Assembly: GCA_963796685.1 (NCBI GenBank)
Contig: CAWCMR010000013.1
Coordinates: 160,001-224,000, forward strand
Direction of reading: 5' to 3'
DNA length: 64,000 bases
Source: an uncultured delta proteobacterium
GTDB lineage: Bacteria; Myxococcota_A; Polyangia; Fen-1088
The position numbers were made by a program, and so were the translations under genes. Within the stretch, counting starts at the first letter, position 1. Every line of letters begins with the position of its first letter. Below are positions 34,639 through 50,070 of this stretch, piece by piece. The notes beneath the pieces are model-generated. The model saw nothing but the letters and a program-made list of their open reading frames with translations, ran no database searches and was not told the origin of the DNA.

Positions 34639-34686
34639 CAACCTCCTGCATGTGCTCTCGCCTGGCAAACTCGGCCACGTTCCAGC

Positions 34687-34875
34687 CTACTTGCCAAGCC
34701 ACTTGGCCATCCGTCGCTTGGCCTCGTCCTGGTCGACCACGCACCCGGCTTCAACGTCGCGCAGGCCGCGTTCGATCTTCTTGCGAACGTAGATGTGGTG
34801 CTGGATATCCTCCAGCGAGGCGTTGTCGGGAAGGTCATCGAGGAGGCGGCGGACGGTTTCTTTGGCGGTGCGCAT
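34687..34875 (-). CDS. Small antitoxin of the type paired with RelE/ParE toxins; toxin partner reduced to a stub
   Basis: MRTAKETVRRLLDDLPDNASLEDIQHHIYVRKKIERGLRDVEAG.VVDQDEAKRRMAKW; an overlapping GTG at 34702 starts MAWQVGW and the toxin-like sequence then stops. Confidence 0.75.
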   Translation of the reverse strand: MRTAKETVRRLLDDLPDNASLEDIQHHIYVRKKIERGLRDVEAGCVVDQDEAKRRMAKWLGK

Positions 34876-35040
34876 GGCGGCGCTTACCCGGATAGGATAG
34901 CGCGCTTAGGGCTTCCATGACACCCTCCCCTGAGTGCCTCTTGGCTATCCCATCGGGATGGTTGCCAGGCCAAGGGGCAGTCTGGGAACACCCGACGGTA
35001 GGACTTGCGGCCGAATCCGTGGCAAGATAGGACGTATTCA

Positions 35041-35436
35041 ATGTCGACGTCTTCCGCGCTCTACACAACCGTTCCGCAGCACATGCCCGACGTGCTTTTC
35101 AGCCAGGGCCTTGCCGATCCGCGCAAGACGGCGAACTTTCTAGGCTTCAAGAACGAGGACGTCGCCACCGCTACGGGGGTGCCGCGCAGGTCTGTGCATC
35201 TTGGGGCCGGCATTCCGGCAGAAGTGCGGGAACGACTGACCGAGATCGCAACCATCTGCGCGCTGGTGATGGACCACTTCTCCGGCGATGAAGACAAGAC
35301 CCACTTGTGGTTCACGACGCGGAATCCGCTTCTGGGCAATCTTTCGCCCCGCGAGATGATACGTCTAGGGCTCTATCGAAAGGTGTTGCGGTTCGTCCAG
35401 GAAGCGCGTGGTCAGGAGCCGCCCCTAGCAGCGTGA
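35041..35436 (+). CDS. Xre/MbcA/ParS-type antitoxin
   Basis: C-terminal DEDKTHLWFTTRNPLLGNLSPREMI motif; GTGA-coupled to the RES gene. Confidence 0.85.
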   Translation: MSTSSALYTTVPQHMPDVLFSQGLADPRKTANFLGFKNEDVATATGVPRRSVHLGAGIPAEVRERLTEIATICALVMDHFSGDEDKTHLWFTTRNPLLGNLSPREMIRLGLYRKVLRFVQEARGQEPPLAA

Positions 35437-36362
35437 CAAAGCGTGGCCAGAGGCGGTTCATCCACCGCCCGCGCATCAATCCCACACCGTCTGTTCCGGT
35501 GGTGCGTATCTTCGACACATTCACGCTGGAGTCTCTTCGCAAAGGGCCTCGGATCATGGCCGAGGTCCTACGGTTTGCGTGGGACCACTACTCCGCGCTT
35601 CAGCATCAGCGTTCGGCGGTTGCCGAGGCAATTGCCGAGGCGCTCGCCCGTGCCAGATCCGGCCCGTTTCCGTTCAGAGCATGGATGCGAGTCGTTGACT
35701 ACCGGTATACCAATCACCCTTTGTCAGTCGTCGGGAGCGTCAAGTCGATAGCGGGTGGCCGGTTCAACATCGGCGACCTCGATCCGATCAAGTTTGCGCC
35801 GTTCCCCGCGCTTTATCTGGCATCGGACCATGCGACGGTCTTGGCGGAGACACTTGGGCAACCTGGCGACTCCGACGGGCTCACTCAAAACGAACTGGCG
35901 CTACGAAGCAAGCGGTCCTATTCGTGCGTGGCCGTGAACGGGCTGATGGAGACGGTGATCGACCTCTCGAAGATGGACCGACTTCGCCAATTCGTGGACG
36001 TCATTGGGAAGTTCAAGCTGTCGGTCTCCATCCGCGAGGATGCGAAACGCCTCGGGATTCCGGGTGCAATTGTCTCGTCCATTGCTGGCCTGGAGACGGC
36101 TCTATTTGCGTTGCACTGGCGGGCTATGCCGATGCAGATGGGCGTTCCCGCATCATCCCAAATATTCGGACAGCTTGTTGCCCGTGCTGGAATCGAGGGC
36201 ATCGTCTTTCCGTCGGTAAGATCGGACTCGGGTGGAACGTCGCTGGCCGTGTTCCCCCAAAACCTTCAGGGCGATTCTTTCGTCGAGCTTGCCGATCCTG
36301 CGGCGCCCGCGACCAAGCACGCTCGTTTGGATGCCAAGACTTGGCGCACCTTTTTGTGCTGA
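35433..36362 (+). CDS. RES-domain toxin (NAD+ phosphorylase/mART family)
   Basis: GGRFN, ALYLASDHATVLAE, SQIFGQ, GIEGIVFPSVR, LAVFPQNL; conserved R, E and S residues present. Confidence 0.88.
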   Translation: MTKRGQRRFIHRPRINPTPSVPVVRIFDTFTLESLRKGPRIMAEVLRFAWDHYSALQHQRSAVAEAIAEALARARSGPFPFRAWMRVVDYRYTNHPLSVVGSVKSIAGGRFNIGDLDPIKFAPFPALYLASDHATVLAETLGQPGDSDGLTQNELALRSKRSYSCVAVNGLMETVIDLSKMDRLRQFVDVIGKFKLSVSIREDAKRLGIPGAIVSSIAGLETALFALHWRAMPMQMGVPASSQIFGQLVARAGIEGIVFPSVRSDSGGTSLAVFPQNLQGDSFVELADPAAPATKHARLDAKTWRTFLC

Positions 36363-36375
36363 CGGACTAGTCTAG

Positions 36376-36627
36376 TCAGCCATCGGCCAGTTCTCGCCTG
36401 AGCGAGCTCATGTCCACCGCGAAGGCATCCACATCCTCGCGGGCCAGGGCCAGGATGAAATCCGTGCGGCCAAGCCCAGCCAGCTGCGCGGCGCGCTCTT
36501 GCGAGATGAGGCCGCGCGAATACCAGTGGACGGCGGCGGCGAGACGCAGATCGCCGGCCATTTCGTCGGGAGACCGACGAAGCGCGGAGAAGGTTTCCTC
36601 GGGCAGTTGCACTTGAACCGTGACCAT
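36376..36627 (-). CDS. UPF0175-family antitoxin; PIN toxin partner missing
   Basis: LRLAAAVHWYSRGLISQERAAQLAGLGRTDF; the overlapping downstream start reads ATG GCT GAC TAG (MAD*). Confidence 0.85.
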   Translation of the reverse strand: MVTVQVQLPEETFSALRRSPDEMAGDLRLAAAVHWYSRGLISQERAAQLAGLGRTDFILALAREDVDAFAVDMSSLRRELADG

Positions 36628-36642
36628 GAGCTTGCGACAAGC

Positions 36643-36702
36643 CTACCACGACAACGCGTCTGGCGTTTCGGCGCGGGCATCGGGGTGGTAGCGGACCTTC
36701 AC
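36643..36702 (-). pseudogene. ParE/RelE toxin N-terminal stub
   Basis: GTGA-coupled MKVRYHPDARAETPDALSW* resembles the ParE N-terminus and ends after 19 codons. Confidence 0.6.
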
Positions 36703-36917
36703 CGGCCAGCCCGTGCGCGAAGACGTCTGGCGGCCTCGGCGTGGACTTCATCAGCATCGACCAAGGCCACCTTGCCATCCGCCACATCGCGCGCGCGGCG
36801 ATCAATCTCGGCCGCCCAAAGGGCGTCCGCGTTGGGATCGGCGTCTTCGGCGTCCAGGCTGGCGATGAGATCATCCGCCGCTGGCCTGGTCTTGGTCGAC
36901 CGCGCGCCCGGCATCAT
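36699..36917 (-). pseudogene. Addiction-module antitoxin (TIGR02574-like) with chimeric, truncated N-terminus
   Basis: LIASLD...DALWAAEIDRRARDVADGKVALVDADEV; the 5' ~45 bp resemble an out-of-frame piece of the 34687-34875 gene. Confidence 0.65.
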
Positions 36918-37417
36918 GGCAACTCTTCGTCGGCCAAACGAAGCACGGCCGCGCGTGTTTGCGCGTCCAGCCTGAATCGAAGAGCCGCGAGGCGATCGAG
37001 AACTGGGGCGACCGCGTCCAGAAAACCTTGCTGTTTGGCTTTCACCAAAACACCGGCTGTGCCGGTGAAGCGAACACCCAGATGGCCAGCGTAGCGGCGG
37101 GCGAGGCCGTCGTCGATGATCAGGATCGCGCCTGGCGTTTCTGCTGCCAGCGCAAGGGCTTCACGTTCTCCTGGCCCAAGGTCGCTCACTGCGGGCAAGA
37201 TGGCCATGCTCTGTGGGCGCACGATGCGCACCCAGGGAAAAGCGGTCGGGTCCGGAAGATCGAATCCCAGCGCGCGGCCAGCTGCCAGTTCCTGGACCAC
37301 GGCCGGTGGCACCAGGATCTCCTCGTACAGCTTCACCAGCAGATCGGTCAGGCCACACTGATGAAGGTACTGGAGCGGCGACGTGTTCGCGATCGTGACC
37401 GGACGCGGGTCAGGCAT
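36914..37417 (-). CDS. DUF3368 PIN-domain toxin
   Basis: IANTSPLQYL, ILVPPAVVQEL, LGPGEREALALA, LIIDDGLARR, FTGTAGVLVKAK. Confidence 0.9.
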   Translation of the reverse strand: MPDPRPVTIANTSPLQYLHQCGLTDLLVKLYEEILVPPAVVQELAAGRALGFDLPDPTAFPWVRIVRPQSMAILPAVSDLGPGEREALALAAETPGAILIIDDGLARRYAGHLGVRFTGTAGVLVKAKQQGFLDAVAPVLDRLAALRFRLDAQTRAAVLRLADEELP

Positions 37418-37658
37418 TCCGGACGTCTCGGGCAATTTCTTCGTCGGACAGCTTGAACACGGGAACGTCGTAGTCGGCCAGCTTGGTCATGAAGACTGGC
37501 TTGGGCAGGCCCGCTAGTTGAGCGGCGGCGCCAGCCGCGAGGCGCCCCATCTCGTATAGCTTCACAGCCGCGACCAACACGACCTCGCGCTCGGCGGCGT
37601 CCGCGCTCAGCTTCAACGCCAGCAGCGTTTCATCTGGGATGTTCAGGTGCCCGACCAT
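37410..37658 (-). CDS. UPF0175-family antitoxin
   Basis: AAVKLYEMGRLAAGAAAQLAGLPKPVFMTKLADYDV; overlaps the DUF3368 start. Confidence 0.88.
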   Translation of the reverse strand: MVGHLNIPDETLLALKLSADAAEREVVLVAAVKLYEMGRLAAGAAAQLAGLPKPVFMTKLADYDVPVFKLSDEEIARDVRNA

Positions 37659-37945
37659 GAAATGAACCTTACCACAGGGCTGATCCCTGAGCCGAGGAGG
37701 ATGCCATCGCGTCCCAAACACACCCCATCGGGTCGTTTGCCACGGCCGAAATTTTTGCCACGCTTTTGCCATGAAGTCCGACTTTGTGGTGGTCTTCTGC
37801 GGATAGACGCGGCTCGAAACGGAACGACCCCACCGAGCTGAACACCTGAAAACCACTCAGAAAACCAGCGCAAGGCCGCGTCGCGCCTGGGTCTTTTCTA
37901 AATGGCTTGCAGGTGTTTCAAGTCCCGATGGGTCACAAGGATTCG

Positions 37946-38035
37946 TCGGCCAGCTCTCGCCTGAGCGAACCTTCACCGGCTAGCCCGCGCGCGAAGACGT
38001 CTAGCGGCCTCGGCGTGGACTTCGTCAGCATCGAC
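37946..38035 (-). repeat. Fused copies of two antitoxin 3' ends outside the tRNA-Glu att repeat
   Basis: 37946-37968 matches 36383-36405 (1 mismatch); 37969-38035 matches 36695-36761 (4 mismatches in 67 bp). Confidence 0.85.
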
Positions 38036-38160
38036 GCTGCCACGGCGCCGTTCAGGTCACGGATCAAGGGGGCCCAGTCCTTGGCGCTGTGCCGGGGACG
38101 CCCACCGAATCGCTAGAAACAAGGCGAAATACGCAGCGTTTCCGCGTCCTGGTCCCCGAA

Positions 38161-38182
38161 GTTACCCCCAAAGTTACCCCCA
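38161..38182. promoter_or_regulatory. Integrase arm-type sites, distal att
   Basis: GTTACCCCCA-AA-GTTACCCCCA, the same tandem repeat as 49848-49869. Confidence 0.8.
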
Positions 38183-38217: not shown

Positions 38218-38502
38218 TCACTCGTCGCCGCGACCGCGCTTGGGCACGAGGGTAGCAAGGTCGAAGCGCAAAGTTCTGCCGACACGCTGGCAAGGAATCG
38301 AGCCGTCCTTCACTCGGCGCCACAGCGTCGCGCGCGAGATGCCGAGGATCCTCATTGCATCTTCCGGCCTTCCAAGCGCCGACGGCGCAGCGGCGCGAAG
38401 CTGCTCGACGGCGATGATCAGCCGGTCCACCCGTACAGCCAGCGCGGCGACAGCTCGCCTTGTGGCGCGGACCTCGGCAAGCGTGGCCGTGGGACGGCTC
38501 AC
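38218..38502 (-). CDS. Excisionase-like HTH protein
   Basis: AMRILGISRATLWRRVKDGSIPCQRVGRTLRFD; GTGA-coupled to the upstream gene. Confidence 0.75.
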   Translation of the reverse strand: MSRPTATLAEVRATRRAVAALAVRVDRLIIAVEQLRAAAPSALGRPEDAMRILGISRATLWRRVKDGSIPCQRVGRTLRFDLATLVPKRGRGDE

Positions 38503-39077
38503 GGAAAGAGGACACCCCGGTGGACATCGCGGACCCATTCGGCGGCCGCTCTAGGTGCTTCGTCGCGAAACTCGCGTGTTCCAAGCCCCCAGAGCAAGTC
38601 GATGCTCCGAAGGTAGGTCAAAACGCGTTCGTCCTCGTCGCTGCTACCAAGTATGCACTGGTGTTCGCCACCGATGTGCCTGTCAAAGCTGCCCAACTCG
38701 ACCGGCCAAGAATCGCCGTCGATGGACTTGCTGAATTCCCCAAGACGTCGTTGGTAGTCAACGATATCGGATGCGAAGTAGAACCTTGCCGCGACCCTAA
38801 CGGTCAATGTGCCTTTGTGTTCACCGATGAACTGAACCGGCGAAAGCAAGCCCGCCATGTACAGCTTCTCGATTACTTCGAACACTCGGACGTCGTGGTC
38901 CGAGTCCCACAAGACCGCGAGCGTGTGCACATGGGGAAGTTCCAGCCTCTCCCGCATCACGTCCAGCCATTCGGCACAGCGAACGATGCTGTAGTGGGTG
39001 TCCCACCCCAGGCCGACCGCCTCGGGCTGGTCGTAGATTGTCGAAAGGAGCGTGGAATACTGACGTGTTTCGCGCAT
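38499..39077 (-). CDS. Hypothetical cargo protein (192 aa, lower GC)
   Basis: GGAGG RBS before ATG 39077; globular composition; WDSDHDVRV and IGEHKGTL motifs; no family recognised. Confidence 0.7.
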   Translation of the reverse strand: MRETRQYSTLLSTIYDQPEAVGLGWDTHYSIVRCAEWLDVMRERLELPHVHTLAVLWDSDHDVRVFEVIEKLYMAGLLSPVQFIGEHKGTLTVRVAARFYFASDIVDYQRRLGEFSKSIDGDSWPVELGSFDRHIGGEHQCILGSSDEDERVLTYLRSIDLLWGLGTREFRDEAPRAAAEWVRDVHRGVLFP

Positions 39078-40260: not shown

Positions 40261-40781
40261 TCACCCCTTCGTCCGGCTCGGCGACGTTGCCCACGGTTGA
40301 TCAACGATTTCGGCCGCCGGCTCTCGAGCAGTCTTCAGGGCCTCCGCTGTACATTGGAACGTCCTACGTACGAAAGCCCGATCGCCGCCTGCACAACCGG
40401 CAACGGCGCGCCGCCGGGAAACTGATCGGCGATATCCAGGGCGCAGCTCTTGTCCGCGGGCACTTCGGCCGGTTCGCGGTCGGGAAAGTTCAGCTTGATC
40501 GATCCTCGCGGGCTCACGTCGAGGTAGTTGTTGAATCGACAAGAAACCCACGGGCACGGCCTGGGGCCGTCTATGCAGTCACCGCGGGTCTTGGGCCGCT
40601 CCACGTCGCTGGGGTATTCCACCACCTCGCCAAACCATCGGTCGCGCAAGGCCCGCTGGGAATCCGGCGCTGCGGGGTGTTGCTGGTGGTAGGCAGCCAT
40701 CCCGGCTTGACCATGCCGCGTGACCACGCCGATTCCATCGCGCCACGATTCGAGCTGCCGAAGGTTTATCGATTTCCGCAC
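40261..40781 (-). CDS. Cys-rich DNA-binding protein with sigma region-4-like HTH (probable frameshift near 40365)
   Basis: RPKTRGDCIDGPRPCPWVSCRFNNYLDVSPRGSIKLNFPD...SCALDIAD; the HTH continues IGLSY|RTFQCTAEALKTARE in the adjacent frame. Confidence 0.6.
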
Positions 40782-40787
40782 GAGGCC

Positions 40788-41081
40788 TCACGCGGTCGGC
40801 GCTTCGAGTAGTGCCACCAACCTGGGTGGGAGCCACGCGGGCACGCAGTCGAGATGGTCCAGGACAGATCGCAGCCGATTGAGCACGCGATTGACTTGCA
40901 CGTGCGATGGCTTCCCGGCTGCCACAAAAGCGGCTAGGTTTGCATCGAGTGAGCCTTGTGTGCGTCCAAGCGTCTCGATTGCCCAACAGTCGAACGCCAG
41001 CACGGCCAGCGTGAGGTTGCCCCGCACGTCCAGCAGCACGGGGGATTCCTCGCCGCGAAGGTCTTGCTCGGCCGCGGTCAC
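40788..41081 (-). CDS. Hypothetical protein
   Basis: GTGA-coupled ORF in the satellite operon. Confidence 0.5.
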   Translation of the reverse strand: MTAAEQDLRGEESPVLLDVRGNLTLAVLAFDCWAIETLGRTQGSLDANLAAFVAAGKPSHVQVNRVLNRLRSVLDHLDCVPAWLPPRLVALLEAPTA

Positions 41082-41440
41082 GTTCCAGCCTCGGTTGAGA
41101 TCAGCTTGACCGCGGACACCACGGCGCGGGCAAACGTCCGGGCATCCTTCCCGCCCAAAGACCAGCAGATGTCGGTGCTACTGCGGACTGGCCACCATCG
41201 ACCGGCCGTGTCCTGATGCCACCGACGAATCAGAATCCTAGCTGGCCGCCCAGCGGTAGGTGGTTGGCTGGTGATTCGCAACTCGCTGCCGTTCTTGATT
41301 GCGATCGCTCCGTGGAGCCGGTGGGCCGCCTCCGGGCCGCGGTCGGTTGCTGGGCGCGGGCGTGCCGGCGTGGGCGCTGGCGTCTCGGCTTCGCCAAAGC
41401 CATGAAAGGCGAGGCGGGCGGATGTGTTGGGCGAGTTCAT
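41078..41440 (-). CDS. PC4/YdbC-like ssDNA-binding protein
   Basis: ELRITS...ILIRRWHQDTAGRWWPVR resembles the PC4-fold DIRxWYxDxxGEWxP motif; ATGA-coupled. Confidence 0.5.
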   Translation of the reverse strand: MNSPNTSARLAFHGFGEAETPAPTPARPRPATDRGPEAAHRLHGAIAIKNGSELRITSQPPTAGRPARILIRRWHQDTAGRWWPVRSSTDICWSLGGKDARTFARAVVSAVKLISTEAGT

Positions 41441-42033
41441 AGGCCCTTCGCCTCGCGGGCCAAGGACGCCTGCGCCTCCTCCCCGTAGATCGAGCCCAGT
41501 TCCGGATCCCCGAGAAGCAGGTGCAGCGCATCGTCGATGAAGCCTTCGATGTGATTCACGTCGAGATCGGATAGGTCGCGTTTGCGGGCGATGACTTTTG
41601 CCCAAACGAGTGACTCCCGCGCCGAGCGCAACCAGCGCCCGAAACTCTCAAGCTCTGCGTTCAGCCGGCGGGATTTCTTGGCTCTGGCGATGTCGCCCAG
41701 CACCTCGCGATGCCAGGCTAGACACTTGTTGGCCTCGGCGATGAGCGATGCCCGATCCGTGCGGCTGAGTTCGCCGAGTTCGGCCGCTACCGCCGCCGAA
41801 TGCCGCTCGTATTCCGTCTCGGGCGCCGGCGCGCCCCCATCTGGCGGACACCATTTTCCCGACGGGATCCACGAACGCATCGCGAGGTCAGGATTGATGA
41901 TGGTGATGTGGCTGCGCTTGCCGGGTTTCCCGGTGATGCGCACCGCTGCCGCGGGAATCAGGCCGTCGCGGACCGCGCGCGCAACGGTTCTCCGGGAGCA
42001 TCCGCGTAGCTTCGCAAATTCCTCTGTTGTCAT
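41437..42033 (-). CDS. Putative terminase small subunit (lambda Nu1-like winged HTH plus helical domain)
   Basis: AAGGAG RBS; MTTEEFAKLRGCSRRTVARAVRDGLIP...IINPDLAMRSW N-terminus, helical C-terminus; preceded by a cos-like intergenic region. Confidence 0.6.
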   Translation of the reverse strand: MTTEEFAKLRGCSRRTVARAVRDGLIPAAAVRITGKPGKRSHITIINPDLAMRSWIPSGKWCPPDGGAPAPETEYERHSAAVAAELGELSRTDRASLIAEANKCLAWHREVLGDIARAKKSRRLNAELESFGRWLRSARESLVWAKVIARKRDLSDLDVNHIEGFIDDALHLLLGDPELGSIYGEEAQASLAREAKGL

Positions 42034-42159
42034 AGTGTGTTTCTCCTTACGTGAGACAAGATGGGACATTCTTTTTCGGTGTTGTGCAGACACGTGGCGG
42101 GGCTCCTAGGCGCCGCGTCGTCCAAAACGGCCCAAAGGAGGTACCCCCGTCCGGGCCCG

Positions 42160-42384
42160 TCATTGCCGCTTGCCGAGCCTTCGATCGATGCTCCAGCAGA
42201 GCCACGCCGACCTCACCACCTCCACGCCACACTTGGCACTCAGCCCCACGCCAACCAGGGCAAGCGCCGCCAACCTTGCGGCGGCGGACGCCATCGCCCA
42301 CAGTGCCACCGCCAGGCGCTTCAGCGCAGCCACCAGACCGCCGCGCTTCCCCTTGGCGACAGGGGCGGGCGCCTCACTACTCAT
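42160..42384 (-). CDS. Small hydrophobic protein
   Basis: MSSEAPAPVAKGKRGGLVAALKRLAVALWAMASAAARLAALALVGVGL; overlaps the upstream stop. Confidence 0.5.
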   Translation of the reverse strand: MSSEAPAPVAKGKRGGLVAALKRLAVALWAMASAAARLAALALVGVGLSAKCGVEVVRSAWLCWSIDRRLGKRQ

Positions 42385-42814
42385 CCCTGGCCTTCGCTGT
42401 GCACGCGTGCGCTTCCGCCAACGCCTGTTCATCGAAGGCCTGCATCCTCGCGATGAAGGCATCCTCCTCGCTCCTGTTGTCGATGGGAGTGGGCCGGGCC
42501 TTGGCCATGACCGCTCGAAACTCGGCGTCGGGCCCGACCGCCGCCGCCGCCTTCGACGTGCCGGCAAGCAGCTCGGCCGCGCTCTCGATGGTCATGCCCG
42601 GCATGGCCGCCAGCCTGATGGCCAAGGGTCGCCGTCCCACTGCCTCCGCGTGCCCAACGATGCCTAGGATGCGTTCGCGCTCGACGGTGGCGGCCTCGGC
42701 TCGCGCCTTCGCCTTCGCGCTTTCCCGCGCCTCTGTGAGAGCCTCAGCCCTTGCCTCTGCCTGGATCTGCGCGACCACGTCGGGATACTCGGCCCGCAAC
42801 TGTTCGAGCGTCAC
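42377..42814 (-). CDS. Capsid scaffold-like protein (Nu3 / S49 protease C-terminal type), long form
   Basis: MTLEQLRAEYPDVVAQIQAEA...ERERILGIVGHAEAVGRRPLAIRLAAMPGMTIESAAELL; GTGA-coupled. Confidence 0.6.
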   Translation of the reverse strand: MTLEQLRAEYPDVVAQIQAEARAEALTEARESAKAKARAEAATVERERILGIVGHAEAVGRRPLAIRLAAMPGMTIESAAELLAGTSKAAAAVGPDAEFRAVMAKARPTPIDNRSEEDAFIARMQAFDEQALAEAHACTAKARDE

Positions 42815-43017
42815 AATGCCACCTCCGTGGCCGTCGTGGTAAGCAGCTCGGCCGCAACCTCGACGGTCATTTCCGGCATGGCAGCGAGTCGGATAGCGGC
42901 TGCGCGCCACCCCTTGGCTGCGGGATGCGAGACGATCGCGAGGATGCGTTCACGCTCGGCCGTCGCCGCTCTCTCGTAGTTGCGCTCGAAGATCATTTGC
43001 CGCAGAGACGGGGTCAC
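42811..43017 (-). CDS. Capsid scaffold-like protein, short paralog
   Basis: AERERILAIVSHPAAKGWRAAAIRLAAMPEMTVEVAAELL, a clear paralog of the core of 42377-42814. Confidence 0.6.
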   Translation of the reverse strand: MTPSLRQMIFERNYERAATAERERILAIVSHPAAKGWRAAAIRLAAMPEMTVEVAAELLTTTATEVAL

Positions 43018-43370
43018 GACGCCACCACGCTGTCGTAGGACTTCATCCGCCGCAAAAAGGCCTCGGTTTCGGGATCGTCATCCTGGGCCGTGCCGGTCGG
43101 CGTTTCGCCTGCATCGAGTCTGCGCATGCGTTCGAGAAAAGCCGACTCCTCGGCCGCCTCGCTGGTTGCCGGCATCGCACGCGCGACAGGTGCGCTCGGC
43201 GTGGTGATGCGTGCGCTTGCCGTGGGCGTGGACACCGTTGTGGGCGCGGTGGCCGCGCATTCAGCGCTGCAAAAGCCCGACGTCCGCACTCCGAATCGGC
43301 CGCACGTGCATCGCGTTTGCGCGCGTTCCACGACGGCGGCCAGGGTCTCTTCGCCTTGCGTGTTCATCAC
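43014..43370 (-). CDS. Small protein with N-terminal Cys cluster and duplicated acidic AFxxRM helix
   Basis: CTCG...FCSAEC, Thr/Ala linker, EESAFLERMRRLD and ETEAFLRRMKSYD. Confidence 0.6.
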   Translation of the reverse strand: MMNTQGEETLAAVVERAQTRCTCGRFGVRTSGFCSAECAATAPTTVSTPTASARITTPSAPVARAMPATSEAAEESAFLERMRRLDAGETPTGTAQDDDPETEAFLRRMKSYDSVVAS

Positions 43371-43879
43371 GCACCCGCCTTGCGCGAGGACTTCGCCGGC
43401 TGCTGTGCTGCCAGCGCCGCTTCGAGAGCGGCCACTCGCTCGGCCAGCTTCGCCGGGTTCAGCTCGGCGGGGAGGCATTCAACACAGCACAACTCGCCCC
43501 GCGCGTTGAATCCCACAGCCGGGCGCCCAGCTTTGTAGACAGTGTCCGGATGCCTGACGCAAAACATCGGATCGATAGGAAGCTCGGCTTCCCGCTCGTG
43601 CCGGTCGCGTATCTTTGCCAGCTCCGCGTCGATTTCTGGCCGCCTTCGCGCGGACTCCGCTCGGCGCAAATCTTCCTCCGCTCGCCGAACGCACATCGTG
43701 CACCGCCGCTCCCCCACCGTTCCGTCGGCGGCGGTCACTTGGTGGGTTACGTCGCTCGGCAGATGACAGCGATCGCAGGTGTTCGGCATCTTTTCGAGGG
43801 GTATCGGAGGGCCATCGGTTGGCCCGGCCTCGGATGCCCCCCTTTCGGTGATCGGTGGTTGCAGATAGTTGGATTGCAT
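43367..43879 (-). CDS. Hypothetical Zn-binding/coiled-coil protein
   Basis: AAAGGA RBS; CDRC...CTMC and CVRH...CCVEC motifs. Confidence 0.65.
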   Translation of the reverse strand: MQSNYLQPPITERGASEAGPTDGPPIPLEKMPNTCDRCHLPSDVTHQVTAADGTVGERRCTMCVRRAEEDLRRAESARRRPEIDAELAKIRDRHEREAELPIDPMFCVRHPDTVYKAGRPAVGFNARGELCCVECLPAELNPAKLAERVAALEAALAAQQPAKSSRKAGA

Positions 43880-44036: not shown

Positions 44037-44225
44037 TCATCGGGCTGGCTCCCCTTGCGGCTGCACCAACTCGTGCTGGCGGGGCGTTTCCTGCGTCGAT
44101 GGCGTGCTGGTGCGAGCAATCGCGCGCCAACAGCGTGAGCACAGCAGTTTTCGAGCAACCGCTACGAAGTGCATCTCGGGCGTGGTCAGGTGGCACACGT
44201 CGCATGCATCGCGAGTCGCGGTCAT
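44037..44225 (-). CDS. Small Zn-ribbon protein
   Basis: CDVC...CSRC; ATGA-coupled. Confidence 0.55.
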   Translation of the reverse strand: MTATRDACDVCHLTTPEMHFVAVARKLLCSRCWRAIARTSTPSTQETPRQHELVQPQGEPAR

Positions 44226-44629
44226 GGTGTGGCCTCACGCAGGCACTTGCGACAAACCCTGCCGGAGGTCAGGCCAGGAAGAACGGTTTCGGCTTTGGCG
44301 TCGGTGCCTCCGCAGTCGAGGCACAGCCGTTCGCTTTTCGCGTGGTCCGCCGCGGCCAGTGCCTTGAGCACCGCGAGTTCCCAGGCTCGCAACCGGATCT
44401 CGAGTTCGGCCAGGTCGCCCACACCACGCTGGCAGCGACTAGCCTCTCGACCACACGCAGCCATCGCGCGGGCCACGGCGGGGAGGCGCTCTACCGTAGG
44501 CCACCGATCGTCAAGATCGGGATGCTCCCCGGCTAGGCGGGCCCATGATTCCGCCCAGAGCGCCGCGACGACGTCAGGGGTGCCGGTGCCCAGGGCGTGA
44601 GTGGTGACCAAAGTGCAGGCGGCGGTCAT
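44222..44629 (-). CDS. Hypothetical protein with C-terminal Zn ribbon
   Basis: CLDCG...VCRKC; ATGA-coupled. Confidence 0.6.
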   Translation of the reverse strand: MTAACTLVTTHALGTGTPDVVAALWAESWARLAGEHPDLDDRWPTVERLPAVARAMAACGREASRCQRGVGDLAELEIRLRAWELAVLKALAAADHAKSERLCLDCGGTDAKAETVLPGLTSGRVCRKCLREATP

Positions 44630-44805
44630 TGCAACCCCGCTGGCTTGGGCACCATGAAGATCGGCGGGCGGCCATCTTCGCCAGGACGAAGCCCACGAAG
44701 GTCAACGAGTCGCCCGCGCCAGTCGTAGCCCCAACCGATGGGCGCCATGGGCGTGGCCGTGGTGTCGGTCGTGGGCGCGGCCGCGGTGAACAGCGGGGTC
44801 GTCAT
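44626..44805 (-). CDS. Small hypothetical protein (59 aa)
   Basis: MTTPLFTAAAPTT...GWGYDWRGRLVDLRGL; ATGA overlaps at both ends; below the ORF-track length cutoff. Confidence 0.5.
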   Translation of the reverse strand: MTTPLFTAAAPTTDTTATPMAPIGWGYDWRGRLVDLRGLRPGEDGRPPIFMVPKPAGLQ

Positions 44806-46148
44806 CGATCAGACTCCGGATCAGTGCCATCCGTTGCCGACAACCACGTGGTCAGCTCGGGGGCCCATCTGCACCTCGCCGCCCCTGTCCGTCCCTCGCG
44901 GTTTTTCGCCACGATGATCCGATCCCCATCGGCGCCATGGGTAAGAAACAACACAATGTCGGACTCCTGCTCGAAGGATCCCGTCTCGCGTAAGTCGGAC
45001 AGCATCGGGTCACCACCGCGCTTTTCAATCTCGCGCGAGAGCATCGCCACAAGGAGCACCACACACCCAAGCTCCTTGGCCAAGGTCTTCATGGCGACGG
45101 GCACCTTTGCCGCCTCTTGCTCGCGGGTGTCGCCCCTCTCGCGTCCCACTTGCACCCGTTGTGCGTAGTCGAGCACGATGAGCGCGCGCTTGTCGTCTTC
45201 CTTGCCACTGCGGAGAAATCGCGGGGCCACATGGCGGGCGTGCCACCGCCGGGCCTCGCCGGTGATCTGACCGAGCCGCACGGCCCGGTCGTTCACCCAC
45301 AGCAACGACGAATCGAACCGACCGGATGAGGCTCCAATCTTGCCCCATTCCGCTTTGTCCACACTCCCGACCTTGAGCTTGTGCGAGTTGATACCGGCGT
45401 CGCCGGAAAGCCAGCGCCGACCAAGTCGCTTGAGCATCATTTCAACCGAGAAAAACGCGGTCGGTACTCCGTGCATCCCACAGTACGCAGCGACGTTGCC
45501 CACGAATGCCGACTTGCCGACACCGGGACGAGCGGAGACGGTCACAAGATCGCCGGGCTCGAATCCTTCTGCGACATGGTCAAGCGTCGGAATGCCGGCG
45601 AAGACCCGCGGAACCAACTCGCCCCGCTGCTGTTTCTCGACATCGTCAGCAGCCTCGCGGATTGCCGTAGATACGTGGACCATGCCGCAGTCGCGCGAGA
45701 GATTTTCAAGCTCGGCCGTGCCGTCGCGCATGGCCTGGATCTGCTCTTCCCAGGGTTGGCCACCGTAGGCGAGCGCCAGCGTGTTGGTGCAGGTCTCGAT
45801 CAGTTTTCTACTGGCCGCCAGCTCCCGGACAATCTGCGCGTGGTGGCGCACCTGCTGCGGGATGGCCGCATCGCTCGCGCAAGCCATCGCCCACTCGTGC
45901 CAGCTCGGCGCGAAGTGCGGCTCGGCACCGGCCGCCTTGATGGCGCTGCTGAGTGAGATGGGATCGGTCGGAAGACCCTTGGAAACGGCGGCACTGGCGG
46001 CAGCCCAGGCCTCGCGATGGCACGGCACAAAGAACTCGTCCGGGCGTAGGCCGTCCGATTCCACGATCGCCGCATCGCCGTAGACCAGCTCGGATCCGAT
46101 GACGGCCCGCTCGGCCTCGACGTTGTGTGGTGGCGTCCGGTCGGTCAT
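44802..46148 (-). CDS. dnaB: DnaB-like replicative helicase
   Basis: PPHNVEAERAVIGS, Walker A ARPGVGKS, FFSVEM, IVLDYAQ, LSREIEKRG, PMLSDLRETGSFEQESD, IIVAKNREGRTG. Confidence 0.92.
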   Translation of the reverse strand: MTDRTPPHNVEAERAVIGSELVYGDAAIVESDGLRPDEFFVPCHREAWAAASAAVSKGLPTDPISLSSAIKAAGAEPHFAPSWHEWAMACASDAAIPQQVRHHAQIVRELAASRKLIETCTNTLALAYGGQPWEEQIQAMRDGTAELENLSRDCGMVHVSTAIREAADDVEKQQRGELVPRVFAGIPTLDHVAEGFEPGDLVTVSARPGVGKSAFVGNVAAYCGMHGVPTAFFSVEMMLKRLGRRWLSGDAGINSHKLKVGSVDKAEWGKIGASSGRFDSSLLWVNDRAVRLGQITGEARRWHARHVAPRFLRSGKEDDKRALIVLDYAQRVQVGRERGDTREQEAAKVPVAMKTLAKELGCVVLLVAMLSREIEKRGGDPMLSDLRETGSFEQESDIVLFLTHGADGDRIIVAKNREGRTGAARCRWAPELTTWLSATDGTDPESDR

Positions 46149-46957
46149 GTGCCTACCTCGCCGAGTCCGGGCAGGTCTGGCCACGTGTATGGCGCCGGCT
46201 GGCCGGGCCTGGCTTGCGGGCGCGCAGCGGCCGTGCGCTCGTCTGTCCATCGCTGCTGATGCAGGTAGCTCGCCAGGTAGGGCACGTGCGCGGGATATTC
46301 GCGATCCGTCGCCTGCCAGTGCGGAACCTGCCAGGCTAGGGCCGAGGTCACGGCATCGGCTAGTGCTGCCTCGCCGCCGGCATAGTCGCGCGCCTGTCGC
46401 GTCCAGCTCACGGCGGCTTTGGCTTTCGCGTCTCGCCGGGGATAGATAGCCCAGATGCGGGCAAATGCCTCTGACACCTCAGCTCGACGAGCGCGCGCAC
46501 GCCCAGGAGCGGCAGCGGATGGGCATGTATCCTGATTTGGGGAAGGGGATCCGGATCGGGAAGGGGAACGGGAACGGGACGCTGCCACTGTCGCGCTATT
46601 CGACTGTCCATTAGACGCGCTACTAGCGCCGCTATTGGACGCTGCCCATTCTCGCTTGCGCTTCCGCTCGGCCTCGATGTGGGCCCGGCTCGGCTGGTAC
46701 TCGAGGTAGTCGTGGATCTGGTAGCCGCCCTCGACCATCTCCCACAAGCCGATGCGCACCAGCTCGGCCGCAGTGCCGGAGGCGTCGACTGTCCGCGCGT
46801 AGGCCGCGACCACCGGCAGATCGGCAGTGACGATGACGCCATCCGATTCGGCTTGCGCGGCGTAGGCCAGGCCCGCGAAGTACATCAGGCGGGCGGCATC
46901 GCTGCACCGGAACTTGCGATGCAGGAAGATCCTGTCGTCGATTTTGACCCAGCTCAC
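46145..46957 (-). CDS. Phage-type replication initiator
   Basis: WVKIDDRIFLHRKF...GYQIHDYLEYQPS N-domain, Ser/Pro linker, FARIWAIYPRRDAKAKA...YLASYLHQQRWTDE C-domain; coupled to alpA and dnaB. Confidence 0.75.
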   Translation of the reverse strand: MSWVKIDDRIFLHRKFRCSDAARLMYFAGLAYAAQAESDGVIVTADLPVVAAYARTVDASGTAAELVRIGLWEMVEGGYQIHDYLEYQPSRAHIEAERKRKREWAASNSGASSASNGQSNSATVAASRSRSPSRSGSPSPNQDTCPSAAAPGRARARRAEVSEAFARIWAIYPRRDAKAKAAVSWTRQARDYAGGEAALADAVTSALAWQVPHWQATDREYPAHVPYLASYLHQQRWTDERTAAARPQARPGQPAPYTWPDLPGLGEVGT

Positions 46958-47232
46958 GGCCCGATTACCTCGTCGGCCAGGCGCGCGGCCTCGAGCACGT
47001 CGGCGTCGGTGACGGCGGGTCGCGCCCCCCTCGCTGCGTCGGCGATGCGCTCGCGGATCCAGTTTTCGATCTGGTCGCTCGGCCACGCCACACACCTGGC
47101 ACCCAGCTTGATCGGGGCCGGGAACGTGCCAGCCTGGATCGCGGCGTAGATGGCAGTCCTGCGCAGTCCCACGCGTGCGATCACGCCTGGCAATCTCAGC
47201 AGGCAGATCGGAGCGGGCGGTGCGGCGGTCAT
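46954..47232 (-). CDS. alpA: AlpA-family regulator/excisionase
   Basis: LLRLPGVIARVGLRRTAIYAAIQAGTFPAPIKLGARCVAWPSDQIENWI. Confidence 0.92.
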   Translation of the reverse strand: MTAAPPAPICLLRLPGVIARVGLRRTAIYAAIQAGTFPAPIKLGARCVAWPSDQIENWIRERIADAARGARPAVTDADVLEAARLADEVIGP

Positions 47233-47450
47233 CGCTGCACCGGAGCGAGGTCTGCGAGCTTTTGCGCCGCGAGCGCCAGGGTGCCCGCTCGCACGCCGAG
47301 CGACCCCCGGATCCTGGTGAGTGACGCCTCGGACACCCCGAGTAGTTTGGCGGTGCGGACAGTCCCTTCTCGCTCGACGAGCTCGCGCACCGCCCGGACA
47401 AATAGCGGGCCAGGTTGGACGAGGCCGCCCGAAAGAAAATGCTCATGCAT
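47229..47450 (-). CDS. Small HTH (Cro-like) protein
   Basis: GTVRTAKLLGVSEASLTRIR; ATGA-coupled to alpA. Confidence 0.55.
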   Translation of the reverse strand: MHEHFLSGGLVQPGPLFVRAVRELVEREGTVRTAKLLGVSEASLTRIRGSLGVRAGTLALAAQKLADLAPVQR

Positions 47451-47537
47451 ACAGAAAACTCTGGCATGGCACCTCAGCGGCCGACGCGACAATTGGACCA
47501 CCTGTCGGCGTCTATTGTCGCTGGCCCGTCGCTGTGA

Positions 47538-48551: not shown

Positions 48552-49772
48552 CTAGATCGTCAACACTGCCCCCTCGGTCTGCTTGGGAGATTCACCGGCG
48601 GCGAGCTCGCCCAAGTAGTCCGCCCATCGTTGCATCATCGCCTTGCGCTCGGGAAGGAAGGCGGTGCGGTTGTAGGCGCGGCCGTTGGGATCGCGGACTG
48701 CGTGCGCAAGCTGCGCTTCGATCAGGTCCACGCGTTCGCCGAGGACCTCGTCAAGCAGGGTTCGGGCGGTCGCGCGGAACCCGTGGCCGCTCGCCGTGGC
48801 CTTGGCGATATCCAGGCGGCGAAGGGCGGCGTTGACCGCGGCGTCGGACATCGGCCGATCCCTGCTTCTCTGCGATGGGAACACGTAGGGGCACAAGCCA
48901 GTCAGTGGGTGCAGCTCGCGCAAGATGGCGACCGCCTGCTTGGCCAGGGGCACGATGTGCGGCGTCCCGGTCTTGCTGGCGGTGAAGCGCCACTCGGCCT
49001 TGGGAAGGTCGATGTCAGCCCACTTGGCCGCACGCAGTTCGCCGGGGCGGACGAAGAGCAGGGGGGCCAGCTTCAGCGCAGCGGCCACGATGGGCGTGCC
49101 CTCGTCGTACTTCCAGATCATGCGCAACAGGTCTGCCAGCTTCGCGGGCTCGGTTACCGCGGCCATGTGCTTGGCCTTCACCGGCGGCAAGGCGCCACGT
49201 AGGTCTGCCGTCGGGTCGCGTTCGGCGCGGGCGGTGGCGATGGCGTACCGGAAGATCTGCGAAAGGGCAATGCGCGTGCGGTGCGCGCTTTCTAGTCGCC
49301 CTCTGGCCTCGATACGTCGGAGCACGGCCAGCACTTCGGGGGGCGCGATCTGGCCGATGGGCCGCGACCCTATCCACGGGAATGCATCGTTCGTGAGCCT
49401 CGCGCGAACGCCGCGCGCATGGGACGGCACCCACGTACCTTCAAACCGCTTCAGCCACTCCTCGCCGACGGTTTGAAGGGTGTTGGCGCCTGCCTCCGCC
49501 GACGCAACCTTCGCTGCCTTCCGGTGCGCGCTGGGGTCGATACCGTCGCGAACCTGCTTGCGGGTTGCTTCCCGCTTCTCCCTGGCCTCGGCCAGCGTCG
49601 TCTCGGGATACGTGCCGAGCGATAGCAGCTTCTCTTTGCCGTCGAAGCGGTACTTGAGGCGCCACCACTTGCCGCCAGCCGGTGCAACCTCCAGATACAA
49701 CCCGCCGGTGTCGTAGAGGCGTGTCCTCTTTTCTGCCGGCTTGGCTTTCTTGCAGGCGGTGTCGGTCAGCAT
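48552..49772 (-). CDS. int: P4-family tyrosine integrase with arm-binding domain
   Basis: YDTGGLYLEV...KWWRLKYRFDGKEKLLSLGTYP, FVRPGELR, K, HGFR, LAH, YNR catalytic set intact. Confidence 0.95.
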   Translation of the reverse strand: MLTDTACKKAKPAEKRTRLYDTGGLYLEVAPAGGKWWRLKYRFDGKEKLLSLGTYPETTLAEAREKREATRKQVRDGIDPSAHRKAAKVASAEAGANTLQTVGEEWLKRFEGTWVPSHARGVRARLTNDAFPWIGSRPIGQIAPPEVLAVLRRIEARGRLESAHRTRIALSQIFRYAIATARAERDPTADLRGALPPVKAKHMAAVTEPAKLADLLRMIWKYDEGTPIVAAALKLAPLLFVRPGELRAAKWADIDLPKAEWRFTASKTGTPHIVPLAKQAVAILRELHPLTGLCPYVFPSQRSRDRPMSDAAVNAALRRLDIAKATASGHGFRATARTLLDEVLGERVDLIEAQLAHAVRDPNGRAYNRTAFLPERKAMMQRWADYLGELAAGESPKQTEGAVLTI

Positions 49773-49819: not shown

Positions 49820-49869
49820 TGGGGGTAACTGGTTTTGGAGTCGGCGAGTTACCCCCAAGGTTACCCCCA
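49820..49869. promoter_or_regulatory. Integrase arm-type sites, tRNA-proximal att
   Basis: TGGGGGTAAC (inverted) and GTTACCCCCA-AG-GTTACCCCCA. Confidence 0.8.
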
Positions 49870-49985
49870 CACGTTCACGGCTGTCAACAGACGCAGCCGG
49901 ACTCTAGCGGAGCCAAAGCGGCACTAAATAGCTGATTTCGCTAGATGCCGTGGACTCTCGCGGACAGTGACGGATTACCGCAGAG

Positions 49986-50070
49986 TGCCGGGGACGGGAC
50001 TCGAACCCGTACGCCGCTTTCGCGACAGCGGATTTTAAGTCCGCGGCGTCTACCATTTCGCCACCCCGGC
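49986..50070 (-). tRNA. tRNA-Leu(TAA)
   Basis: GCCGGGG/CCCCGGC-A acceptor stem, GCGGA-CTTAAAA-TCCGC anticodon arm, long variable arm, GGTTCGAGTCC. Confidence 0.95.

Follow-up and report, generated by a model that had tools for sequence, protein, structure and literature searches.

The window analysed here is a 64,000-nt stretch of contig CAWCMR010000013.1 (positions 160,001 to 224,000 of the forward strand, assembly GCA_963796685.1) from an uncultured delta proteobacterium assigned to Myxococcota_A, Polyangia, Fen-1088. It contains a putative phage satellite at a tRNA-Leu gene, and within this island lies a unit of four minus-strand genes (42377-43879) whose stops and starts overlap as TGATG, GTGA and GTGA, which indicates translational coupling. 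Three of the genes appear to encode a whole and two partial versions of the internal scaffold of lambda-type phage heads. Gene C (42377..42814, minus strand) encodes a protein of 145 amino acids (aa) with a GTG start giving MTLEQLRAEYPDVV, a free-standing, protease-less homologue of Nu3-type scaffolds. Gene B (42811..43017, minus strand) encodes a core-only paralogue of 68 aa, and gene A (43014..43367, minus strand) a 117-aa protein with a Cys4 knuckle (C20, C22, C33, C37) and a two-helix copy of the scaffold tail with AFLxRM helices. The initial annotation described a three-gene module. The three genes are confirmed, but a fourth coupled gene belongs to the same unit: an upstream Cys-rich gene (43367..43879, minus strand; 170 aa, two CxxC...CxxC pairs), whose stop overlaps the start of gene A and whose family has four members, the one in a sister island among them. 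In a scan for promoters and terminators, the signal did not rise above that of shuffled sequences.

The gene C product consists of an N-terminal helix (MTLEQLRAEYPDVV...), a core (ERERILGIV...AAELL), two tail helices (h1, AEFRAVMAK; h2, AFIARMQAFD) and a 17-aa extension. The shared core of the two adjacent paralogs, as initially proposed, was recovered by BLASTP between genes B and C with 30 of 45 residues identical (E 3e-16). When gene C was compared with the whole 7.3-Mb assembly, gene B was the sole significant match besides gene C itself (E 1.2e-11); the other five of the seven matches listed had E-values of at least 0.012. In a six-frame scan of the assembly the helix motif AF[LIVM].RM..[LYFWM]D has three matches, all of them in genes A and C, which are the three strings quoted in the initial annotation, and the core motif ER[EA]RI[LIVMA].I has three matches, two of them in the module. 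Since every helix match falls in the module and the B and C cores match each other, the observation is real and not due to chance. Some details of the first description have to be amended. The helix said to close the long paralog is present in gene C, but 17 residues follow it. The helices were also called acidic; they are amphipathic and contain Arg, and the negative net charge (-1 to -6) resides in the linkers that lead into them.

Several independent comparisons relate gene C to phage scaffolds. The protein matches the PHROG family phrog_53, annotated as head maturation protease, at positions 320-422 of 583 (E 3.5e-12), and also phrog_8399, annotated as head scaffolding protein. The match to lambda Nu3 itself has a BLASTP E-value of 4e-8, and an alignment of the gene C family profile with lambda Nu3 by hhalign reaches a probability of 96.8% (E 3.1e-10), so that the initially proposed likeness to the scaffold part of S49/gpC-Nu3 head proteins holds up in the profile comparison that had been proposed for it. 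The homology between gene C and lambda Nu3 covers the core and the first tail helix. A HMMER search of 1.84 billion representatives found 89 relatives of gene C at E <= 1e-3, a set made up of free-standing 63-291-aa proteins and of 314-505-aa proteins with the match at the C-terminus. Peptidase_S49 was found in all ten tested of the 29 hits of at least 379 aa. One free-standing relative of 134 aa (P0030) shares 68-71% identity with the C/nu3 region of lambdoid phages.

The closest phage versions share with gene C the N-terminal helix, the core, both tail helices and a part of the extension. Residues 279-391 of the S49 protein of phage contig L015 are 57% identical to gene C, with the alignment starting at an internal Met, and residues 271-416 of the S49 protein of contig L037 are 50% identical to residues 1-135 of gene C (E 1e-34). 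The gene C alignments thus open at an internal Met of phage S49 proteins, in the way that the nu3 frame is nested inside lambda C. The L015, L017 and L037 contigs have the lambda order of head genes: gpA, gpW, lambda portal, S49 protease, gpD and gpE. Taken together, these sequence comparisons identify gene C as a true homologue of the Nu3-like scaffold region of lambda-type S49 head proteases. Genes A-C contain no S49 domain, and gene C lies neither within nor beside a cluster of protease, portal, decoration and coat genes.

Some searches gave no result. No match to gene C was found by tblastn among named phages at 1e-3, by phmmer among PDB chains at E 10, or in the searched genome contigs and metagenome contigs. 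NCBIfam contained no match for genes A, B or C. For P0009 there was no match in metagenome contigs, and for P0221 and P0020 none in viral contigs. Some enterobacterial-type proteins (P0018, P0021 and P0023) contain three tandem cores, and one of them, P0023, is a 505-aa protein fused to S49; core multiplication therefore also occurs inside phage-type scaffolds.

The distribution of the tail helix was studied in 80 phage S49 loci gathered with the L017 protein, of which the 74 complete ones were scanned for the helix motif. The motif was found at or near the C-terminus of three proteins: L036 (on the same contig as L017), L037, and L038 (on the same contig as L016). In the L037 protein the helix is followed by an extension that resembles the one in gene C. 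The nearest sisters of the motif-bearing proteins, L039 and L040, close with a helix of different sequence that still aligns, AVVARIAA..AN. Among the 89 representative relatives of gene C, the strict motif follows the core in 11, all of which are free-standing proteins of 117-184 aa. The two short, conserved helices that end Nu3-type scaffolds are a probable docking element.

Gene A had been thought to carry the last helix twice. Two helices are indeed present, but they do not look like a doubled copy of one: hhalign pairs the first with AEFRAVMAK and the second with AFIARMQAFD of gene C (probability 67.9%, E 4.9e-5), and gene A therefore appears to carry a copy of the whole scaffold tail. In addition, the final 55 aa of the L036 S49 protein can be aligned with residues 56-111 of gene A (E 7e-6). 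All four members of the gene A family have the same Cys4 segment at the N-terminus, in which the four Cys residues are invariant, and continue with one or two helices. In the metagenomic relatives P0017, P0019, P0025 and P0035, an N-terminus of the CxxC...CxxC type is fused to both the core and the helix. A similarity of gene A residues 74-85 to UBact (PF20513) was rejected as a chance likeness of a short helix, because its score of 15.8 bits is below the cut-off of 27.8 and because the genome has neither UBact above cut-off nor a Pup_ligase. The half of gene A that encodes the helices (43014-43178) is also covered by a 380-bp contig from a peat metagenome, with 5 differing letters in 165.

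Gene B matches phrog_17040, phrog_53 and phrog_8399, and a 63-aa core-only protein on an unrelated contig (P0060) matches it over the full length (E 2e-14). The best partner of gene B is gene C. In the 43 core residues compared, gene C shares 72% identity with the phage core of L015 and 67% with gene B; gene B is therefore an old paralogue and not a fresh duplicate. The proposed scheme of one full, one core-only and one helix-only form agrees at the sequence level with the A-C profile alignment, the B-C BLASTP match and the alignments with phage tails. Contigs of equal length are a hint that P0060 and P0016 share one contig (1852 bp), and P0095 and P0221 another (7935 bp).

A related unit was found in a congener (G036), within an island of about 12 kb (L012) that is located at another site, with an integrase of another kind and a replication protein of the AAA_25 type. 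The two islands share the Cys-rich gene, gene A, gene C (matched at 78% in the genome search), a 120-aa gene and a 148-aa gene; gene B is absent from the island of G036. The G036 gene that follows gene C, a clear TerS homologue, matches over its full length a phage gene just upstream of TerL, the large terminase gene (E 8e-22). The 148-aa protein has a homologue in phage L017 beside a gene similar to TerS, the small terminase gene, and the islands therefore share three gene families with one phage type. The ratios of non-synonymous to synonymous substitution rates (dN/dS) between the window island and the sister island, which come from a single pair, are 0.31 for gene A, 0.56 for gene C and 0.38 for the Cys-rich gene. 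In the same pair, dS varies strongly among the genes, from 0.16 in gene A through 0.34 in gene C and 0.65 in the Cys-rich gene to 1.56 in the 148-aa gene, which suggests a mosaic exchange of modules between the two islands. The gene C family is rare, with two of the 89 genomes of the order containing it. In a sample of 401 genomes of the phylum, two were matched; the second match is a prophage S49 protein that aligns only with profile positions 4-72, on the side of the N-terminal helix, and differs in the downstream region.

The island as a whole spans 11.9 kb between two attachment (att) cores, with all of its genes on one strand. The left core, GTGCCGGGGACG, is at 38089..38100 (plus strand), and the right core, with the same sequence at 49985..49996 (plus strand), is the 3' end of tRNA-Leu(taa) (49985-50070, minus strand). 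This 12-mer occurs twice in the window against 0.03 occurrences expected. The decamer GTTACCCCCA occurs five times against 0.01 expected, always within 170 bp inside the two island ends (38161-38182 and 49820-49869), and these repeats look like arm sites of the integrase. The integrase itself is encoded at 48552..49772 (minus strand) as a tyrosine recombinase with an arm-binding domain (Phage_int_M, Arm-DNA-bind_3, Phage_integrase; phrog_1). It is followed by a gene for a 309-aa protein of no assigned function, a replication initiator (46145..47467, minus strand; phrog_9474, phrog_3926 and phrog_2447, E about 1e-18), a DnaB-type helicase (44802..46250, minus strand; DnaB_C, 1.2e-50; phrog_19), small open reading frames (ORFs) of zinc-ribbon-like type, and the four-gene unit.

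Downstream of the unit is a 218-aa ORF (41437..42093, minus strand) for a helix-turn-helix (HTH) protein in the position of a small terminase. This candidate TerS matches HTH_17 and the terminase small subunit family phrog_57 (E 1.8e-5), and it resembles weakly the N-terminus of the gene that precedes gpA in L015 (E 7e-5, and 0.06 in a second comparison). The stop of this gene overlaps the ATG of a gene for a conserved protein of about 120 aa (41078..41440, minus strand), which has no Pfam family and a similar protein at 8173-8730 of L012. Next come a 97-aa ORF and the gene for the 148-aa protein with an RPCP..C motif (40335..40781, minus strand), whose homologue in phage L017 (862-1074), upstream of the TerS-like gene, is 48% identical over 71 aa (E 1.8e-14). 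The 148-aa gene is apparently frameshifted near its 3' end, as the last 35 or so residues of the G036 homologue continue in the ORF at 40261-40557; the frameshift could be decay or an assembly error. The order ends with a DUF2335 gene, a gene for a 270-aa protein of no assigned function and, at the far end of the island, a gene for an HTH_17 protein of the excisionase/AlpA type (38218..38538, minus strand; E 3.5e-8). Possible resemblances of the 148-aa protein to sigma-70 region 4 and of the 120-aa protein to PC4 were dropped, as neither has Pfam support.

The setting of the genes in a satellite-like element, which the initial annotation had assumed, is well supported by this predicted gene content: an integrase and att repeats at a specific site and an own replication module are combined with a small size and the lack of a full set of virion genes. 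No match to capsid, portal, large-terminase or tail families was found in any of the 20 ORFs of the island and its neighbourhood, although short or unknown ORFs could escape such a search. The reading as a PICI that forms its own capsid was rejected, as the island has no coat, portal or protease gene. Among 18 proteins compared with the PADLOC defence families, 16 had no match and the two matches are of the HTH type. No empty tRNA-Leu site was seen, and in the congeners checked the flank beyond the tRNA did not match the window. Among short fragments from two peat-metagenome contig sets, which contain 6-7% of the sequence words, no trustworthy bridging or excision joint was found.

Several further observations concern the island and its surroundings. 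Cys-pair modules of zinc-ribbon-like type recur in consecutive island genes (44037-44629 and 43014-43879, minus strand), namely at the C-terminus of a 135-aa ORF, in a 62-aa ORF, as two pairs in the 170-aa protein and as the Cys4 of gene A; these modules have no family assignment. A hydrophobic 74-aa ORF (42163-42384, minus strand) has its ATG at 42384 on the stop region of gene C; the DNA of this ORF has no counterpart in the G036 island, and it may not be a gene. Among the tRNA-Leu loci of the genus genomes (L021-L030), several congeners have extra partial copies (about 57 nt) of the 3' part of tRNA-Leu at 1-44 kb from the full gene, and one genome (G034) has a related integrase at the site, so the tRNA-Leu site is a hotspot for islands in the genus. 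A second islet, lacking an integrase, occupies 34640-37932 after tRNA-Glu, with a 16-nt copy of the tRNA-Glu 3' end at 37917-37932. It contains a pair of an Xre-type antitoxin and a RES-domain toxin (35002-36362) and a UPF0175 protein (37410-37856) that is also matched by PADLOC PDC-S70. A 72-nt direct repeat (36690-36761 and 37964-38035, 93%) spans the end of this islet.

To our knowledge, the resizing of capsids by satellites is known in detail for few systems: Sid of P4, CpmAB, Ccm and Rcm of the Staphylococcus aureus pathogenicity islands (SaPIs), and TcaP of the PICI-like elements (PLEs), where PICI stands for phage-inducible chromosomal island. We know of no established resizing mechanism for lambda-type heads. 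Lambdoid phages are the helpers of common Gram-negative PICIs. These islands often carry lambda-type late genes, mostly a coat gene, that are reported as dispensable for transfer (PMC10111431, PMC6092414). In SaPI1, CpmB is described as sharing the C-terminal helix of the helper scaffold and competing for the coat protein (PMC5644958), and Rcm of SaPIpT1028 has been proposed as a similar mimic of the scaffold helix (PMC12409344). Lambda Nu3 is reported to self-associate and to interact with E, B and C (PMC3224144).

Against this background, the explanation we lean towards, with a little better than an even chance of being right, is that a phage satellite turns parts of the scaffold of its helper against the helper's capsid assembly, which is redirected or poisoned. 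By analogy with the SaPI systems, competition with the helper scaffold would probably mean capsid redirection together with interference. The island would be a satellite of the PICI kind at tRNA-Leu. Its helper would be a phage of the lambda type that combines a gpA terminase and a portal of the lambda family with a gpE coat and an S49 protease in which a Nu3-like scaffold is nested. From such a helper the island would have taken over the internal scaffold minus the protease (gene C) and kept two partial forms (genes B and A). We infer that the coupled operon is expressed upon helper infection and that it acts through coat binding, core dimerisation and redirection of head size. The gene C protein could join assembling procapsids through the helper scaffold's own contacts, the gene A protein could compete for the sites that bind the tail, which most likely lie on the coat protein, and the gene B protein could cap the scaffold cores. 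Jointly, the three would alter or poison the scaffold lattice of the helper, so that capsids, most plausibly smaller heads, are diverted to the 12-kb satellite genome and the yield of the helper drops. The neighbouring TerS-like gene would steer packaging to the satellite.

A number of facts weigh against this explanation. The organism's own assembly, which is 88.6% complete, contains no gpE, no HK97-type capsid (PF05065) and no S49 peptidase, and no helper prophage was found in it; its phrog_53 matches outside the module cover the protease part only. In the 89 genomes of the order, likewise, neither a helper prophage nor gpE was found. If a helper exists, it does not reside there. The phages proposed as being of the helper type come from metagenomic contigs with no known host, and the closeness of their G+C content (62.5-66.5%) to the 64.6% of the island counts at best as weak evidence. 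The coat protein is named as the partner of the tail helices by analogy, and the portal, the protease or another protein would be alternatives. The match of the TerS-like protein to a phage gene is the weak one given above, and the frameshifted 148-aa gene may point to a degree of decay. The sister island lacks gene B, which is therefore dispensable for the core function, and the dN/dS figures derive from one pair of islands. The other free-standing relatives of gene C, which may or may not stem from satellites, are found on contigs of 1-8 kb.

The retention of truncated forms beside a complete scaffold bears on another possibility, that the module acts by interference only. The proteins would then be dominant-negative decoys that block capsid assembly of the helper and produce no satellite-sized heads; the block would protect the host population or favour the island, which would either enter full-size heads as concatemers or go unpackaged. 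Core-only and tail-only truncations are what one expects of competitive inhibitors, and a model Escherichia coli PICI is reported to be packaged as phage-length concatemers (PMC10111431). We nevertheless regard interference alone as unlikely, since gene C has been kept under constraint as a complete scaffold beside a TerS-like gene, which fits the use of capsids better than mere blocking, and since the PADLOC comparison yielded no known defence family.

The habit of Gram-negative PICIs of carrying dispensable late genes (PMC10111431, PMC6092414) would equally agree with neutral or accessory cargo, that is, late genes captured from a helper that merely add to the supply of scaffold and that transfer can do without. 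No coat or decoration gene accompanies the scaffold in this island, however; the derived partial forms and the four-member family of Cys4-tail fusions argue for specialisation, and dN/dS is below 1. On these grounds we find cargo a distinctly poor candidate. The choice of the coat as the target can also be questioned. Lambda Nu3 is required for incorporation of the portal and interacts with C and B besides E (PMC3224144), and the phage proteins have their tail joined to a protease. The partner of the tail helices might accordingly be the portal, the S49 protease or the terminase instead of the coat, and the module might act on initiation or maturation of the head, for instance by excluding the helper protease. 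In the solved cases, the scaffold protein of 80alpha and CpmB, the coat is the partner of the C-terminal helix (PMC5644958), and we consider another target improbable. Least probable, and very much so, is that the genes are functionless debris of a degraded lambda-type prophage, as the frameshifted neighbour and the absence of gene B from the sister island could suggest: the start of gene C coincides cleanly with that of the nested scaffold and uses a GTG of its own that is coupled to the preceding stop, all frames are open and both att ends intact, the module is also present in a second island whose integrase and replication genes are different, dN/dS is 0.31-0.56, and core-only and Cys4-tail proteins recur on unrelated metagenome contigs.

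The scaffold-based explanation that we favour can be set against the known systems. Gene C corresponds to the frame of lambda gpNu3, which is nested in an S49 protease gene and starts from an internal Met. Gene C differs in being free-standing, neither nested in a protease gene nor adjoining one, in an island with no portal, coat or decoration gene, and in being accompanied by core-only and tail-only proteins. CpmB and Rcm are described as carrying the C-terminal, coat-binding helix of the helper scaffold and competing with it so that small capsids result (PMC5644958, PMC12409344). Similarly, the helix motif of the module is common to the scaffolds of candidate helper-type phages (three phage S49 proteins). 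In contrast to CpmB and Rcm, to which no sequence relation was seen and no Pfam or PHROG match points, the module comprises a whole scaffold homologue plus pieces and would serve a head of the lambda/gpE type. E. coli PICIs of the EcCICFT073 type have a coat gene (c1499) and a decoration gene (c1500) (PMC6092414); the island described here has neither, and has instead a TerS-like neighbour and the core-only and Cys4-tail proteins. Capsid size is redirected by external scaffolds in the case of P4 Sid and PLE TcaP and by a coat homologue in the case of SaPIbov5 Ccm, according to the respective reports (PMC7552001, PMC10945586, PMC5052747). Unlike these external cages and the coat paralogue, the proteins of the module are homologues of an internal scaffold.

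Full-text literature searches, which did not extend to supplementary tables, found no paper that connects Nu3-type scaffolds with satellites. What appears to be new here is the three-part set, the Cys4-tail family, an island without any coat gene, and a host lineage outside the enterobacterial model systems. A more far-reaching version, which we offer as doubtful speculation, is that the module represents a 'dissected scaffold' kit, the first capsid hijack described for heads of the lambda/gpE type that uses pieces of the helper's internal scaffold. The full scaffold, lacking the protease, would impose a new, smaller lattice, the core-only protein would cap dimers of the helper scaffold, and the Cys4-anchored tail would fill the scaffold sites of the coat or bridge them to another partner. 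If this is true, the fusions of zinc ribbon and core (P0017, P0019, P0025 and P0035) would mark an undescribed class of satellite assembly factors.

Even if the genes were inert, names would be gained for a small family of 'hypothetical' proteins. The tail helices, as the probable docking element, would give a useful handle on procapsid assembly in lambda, a process described as still poorly defined (PMC3224144). The island itself may serve as a compact and testable case, with whole-scaffold, core-only and tail-only forms in one coupled operon and with head modules of candidate helper-type phages already sequenced.

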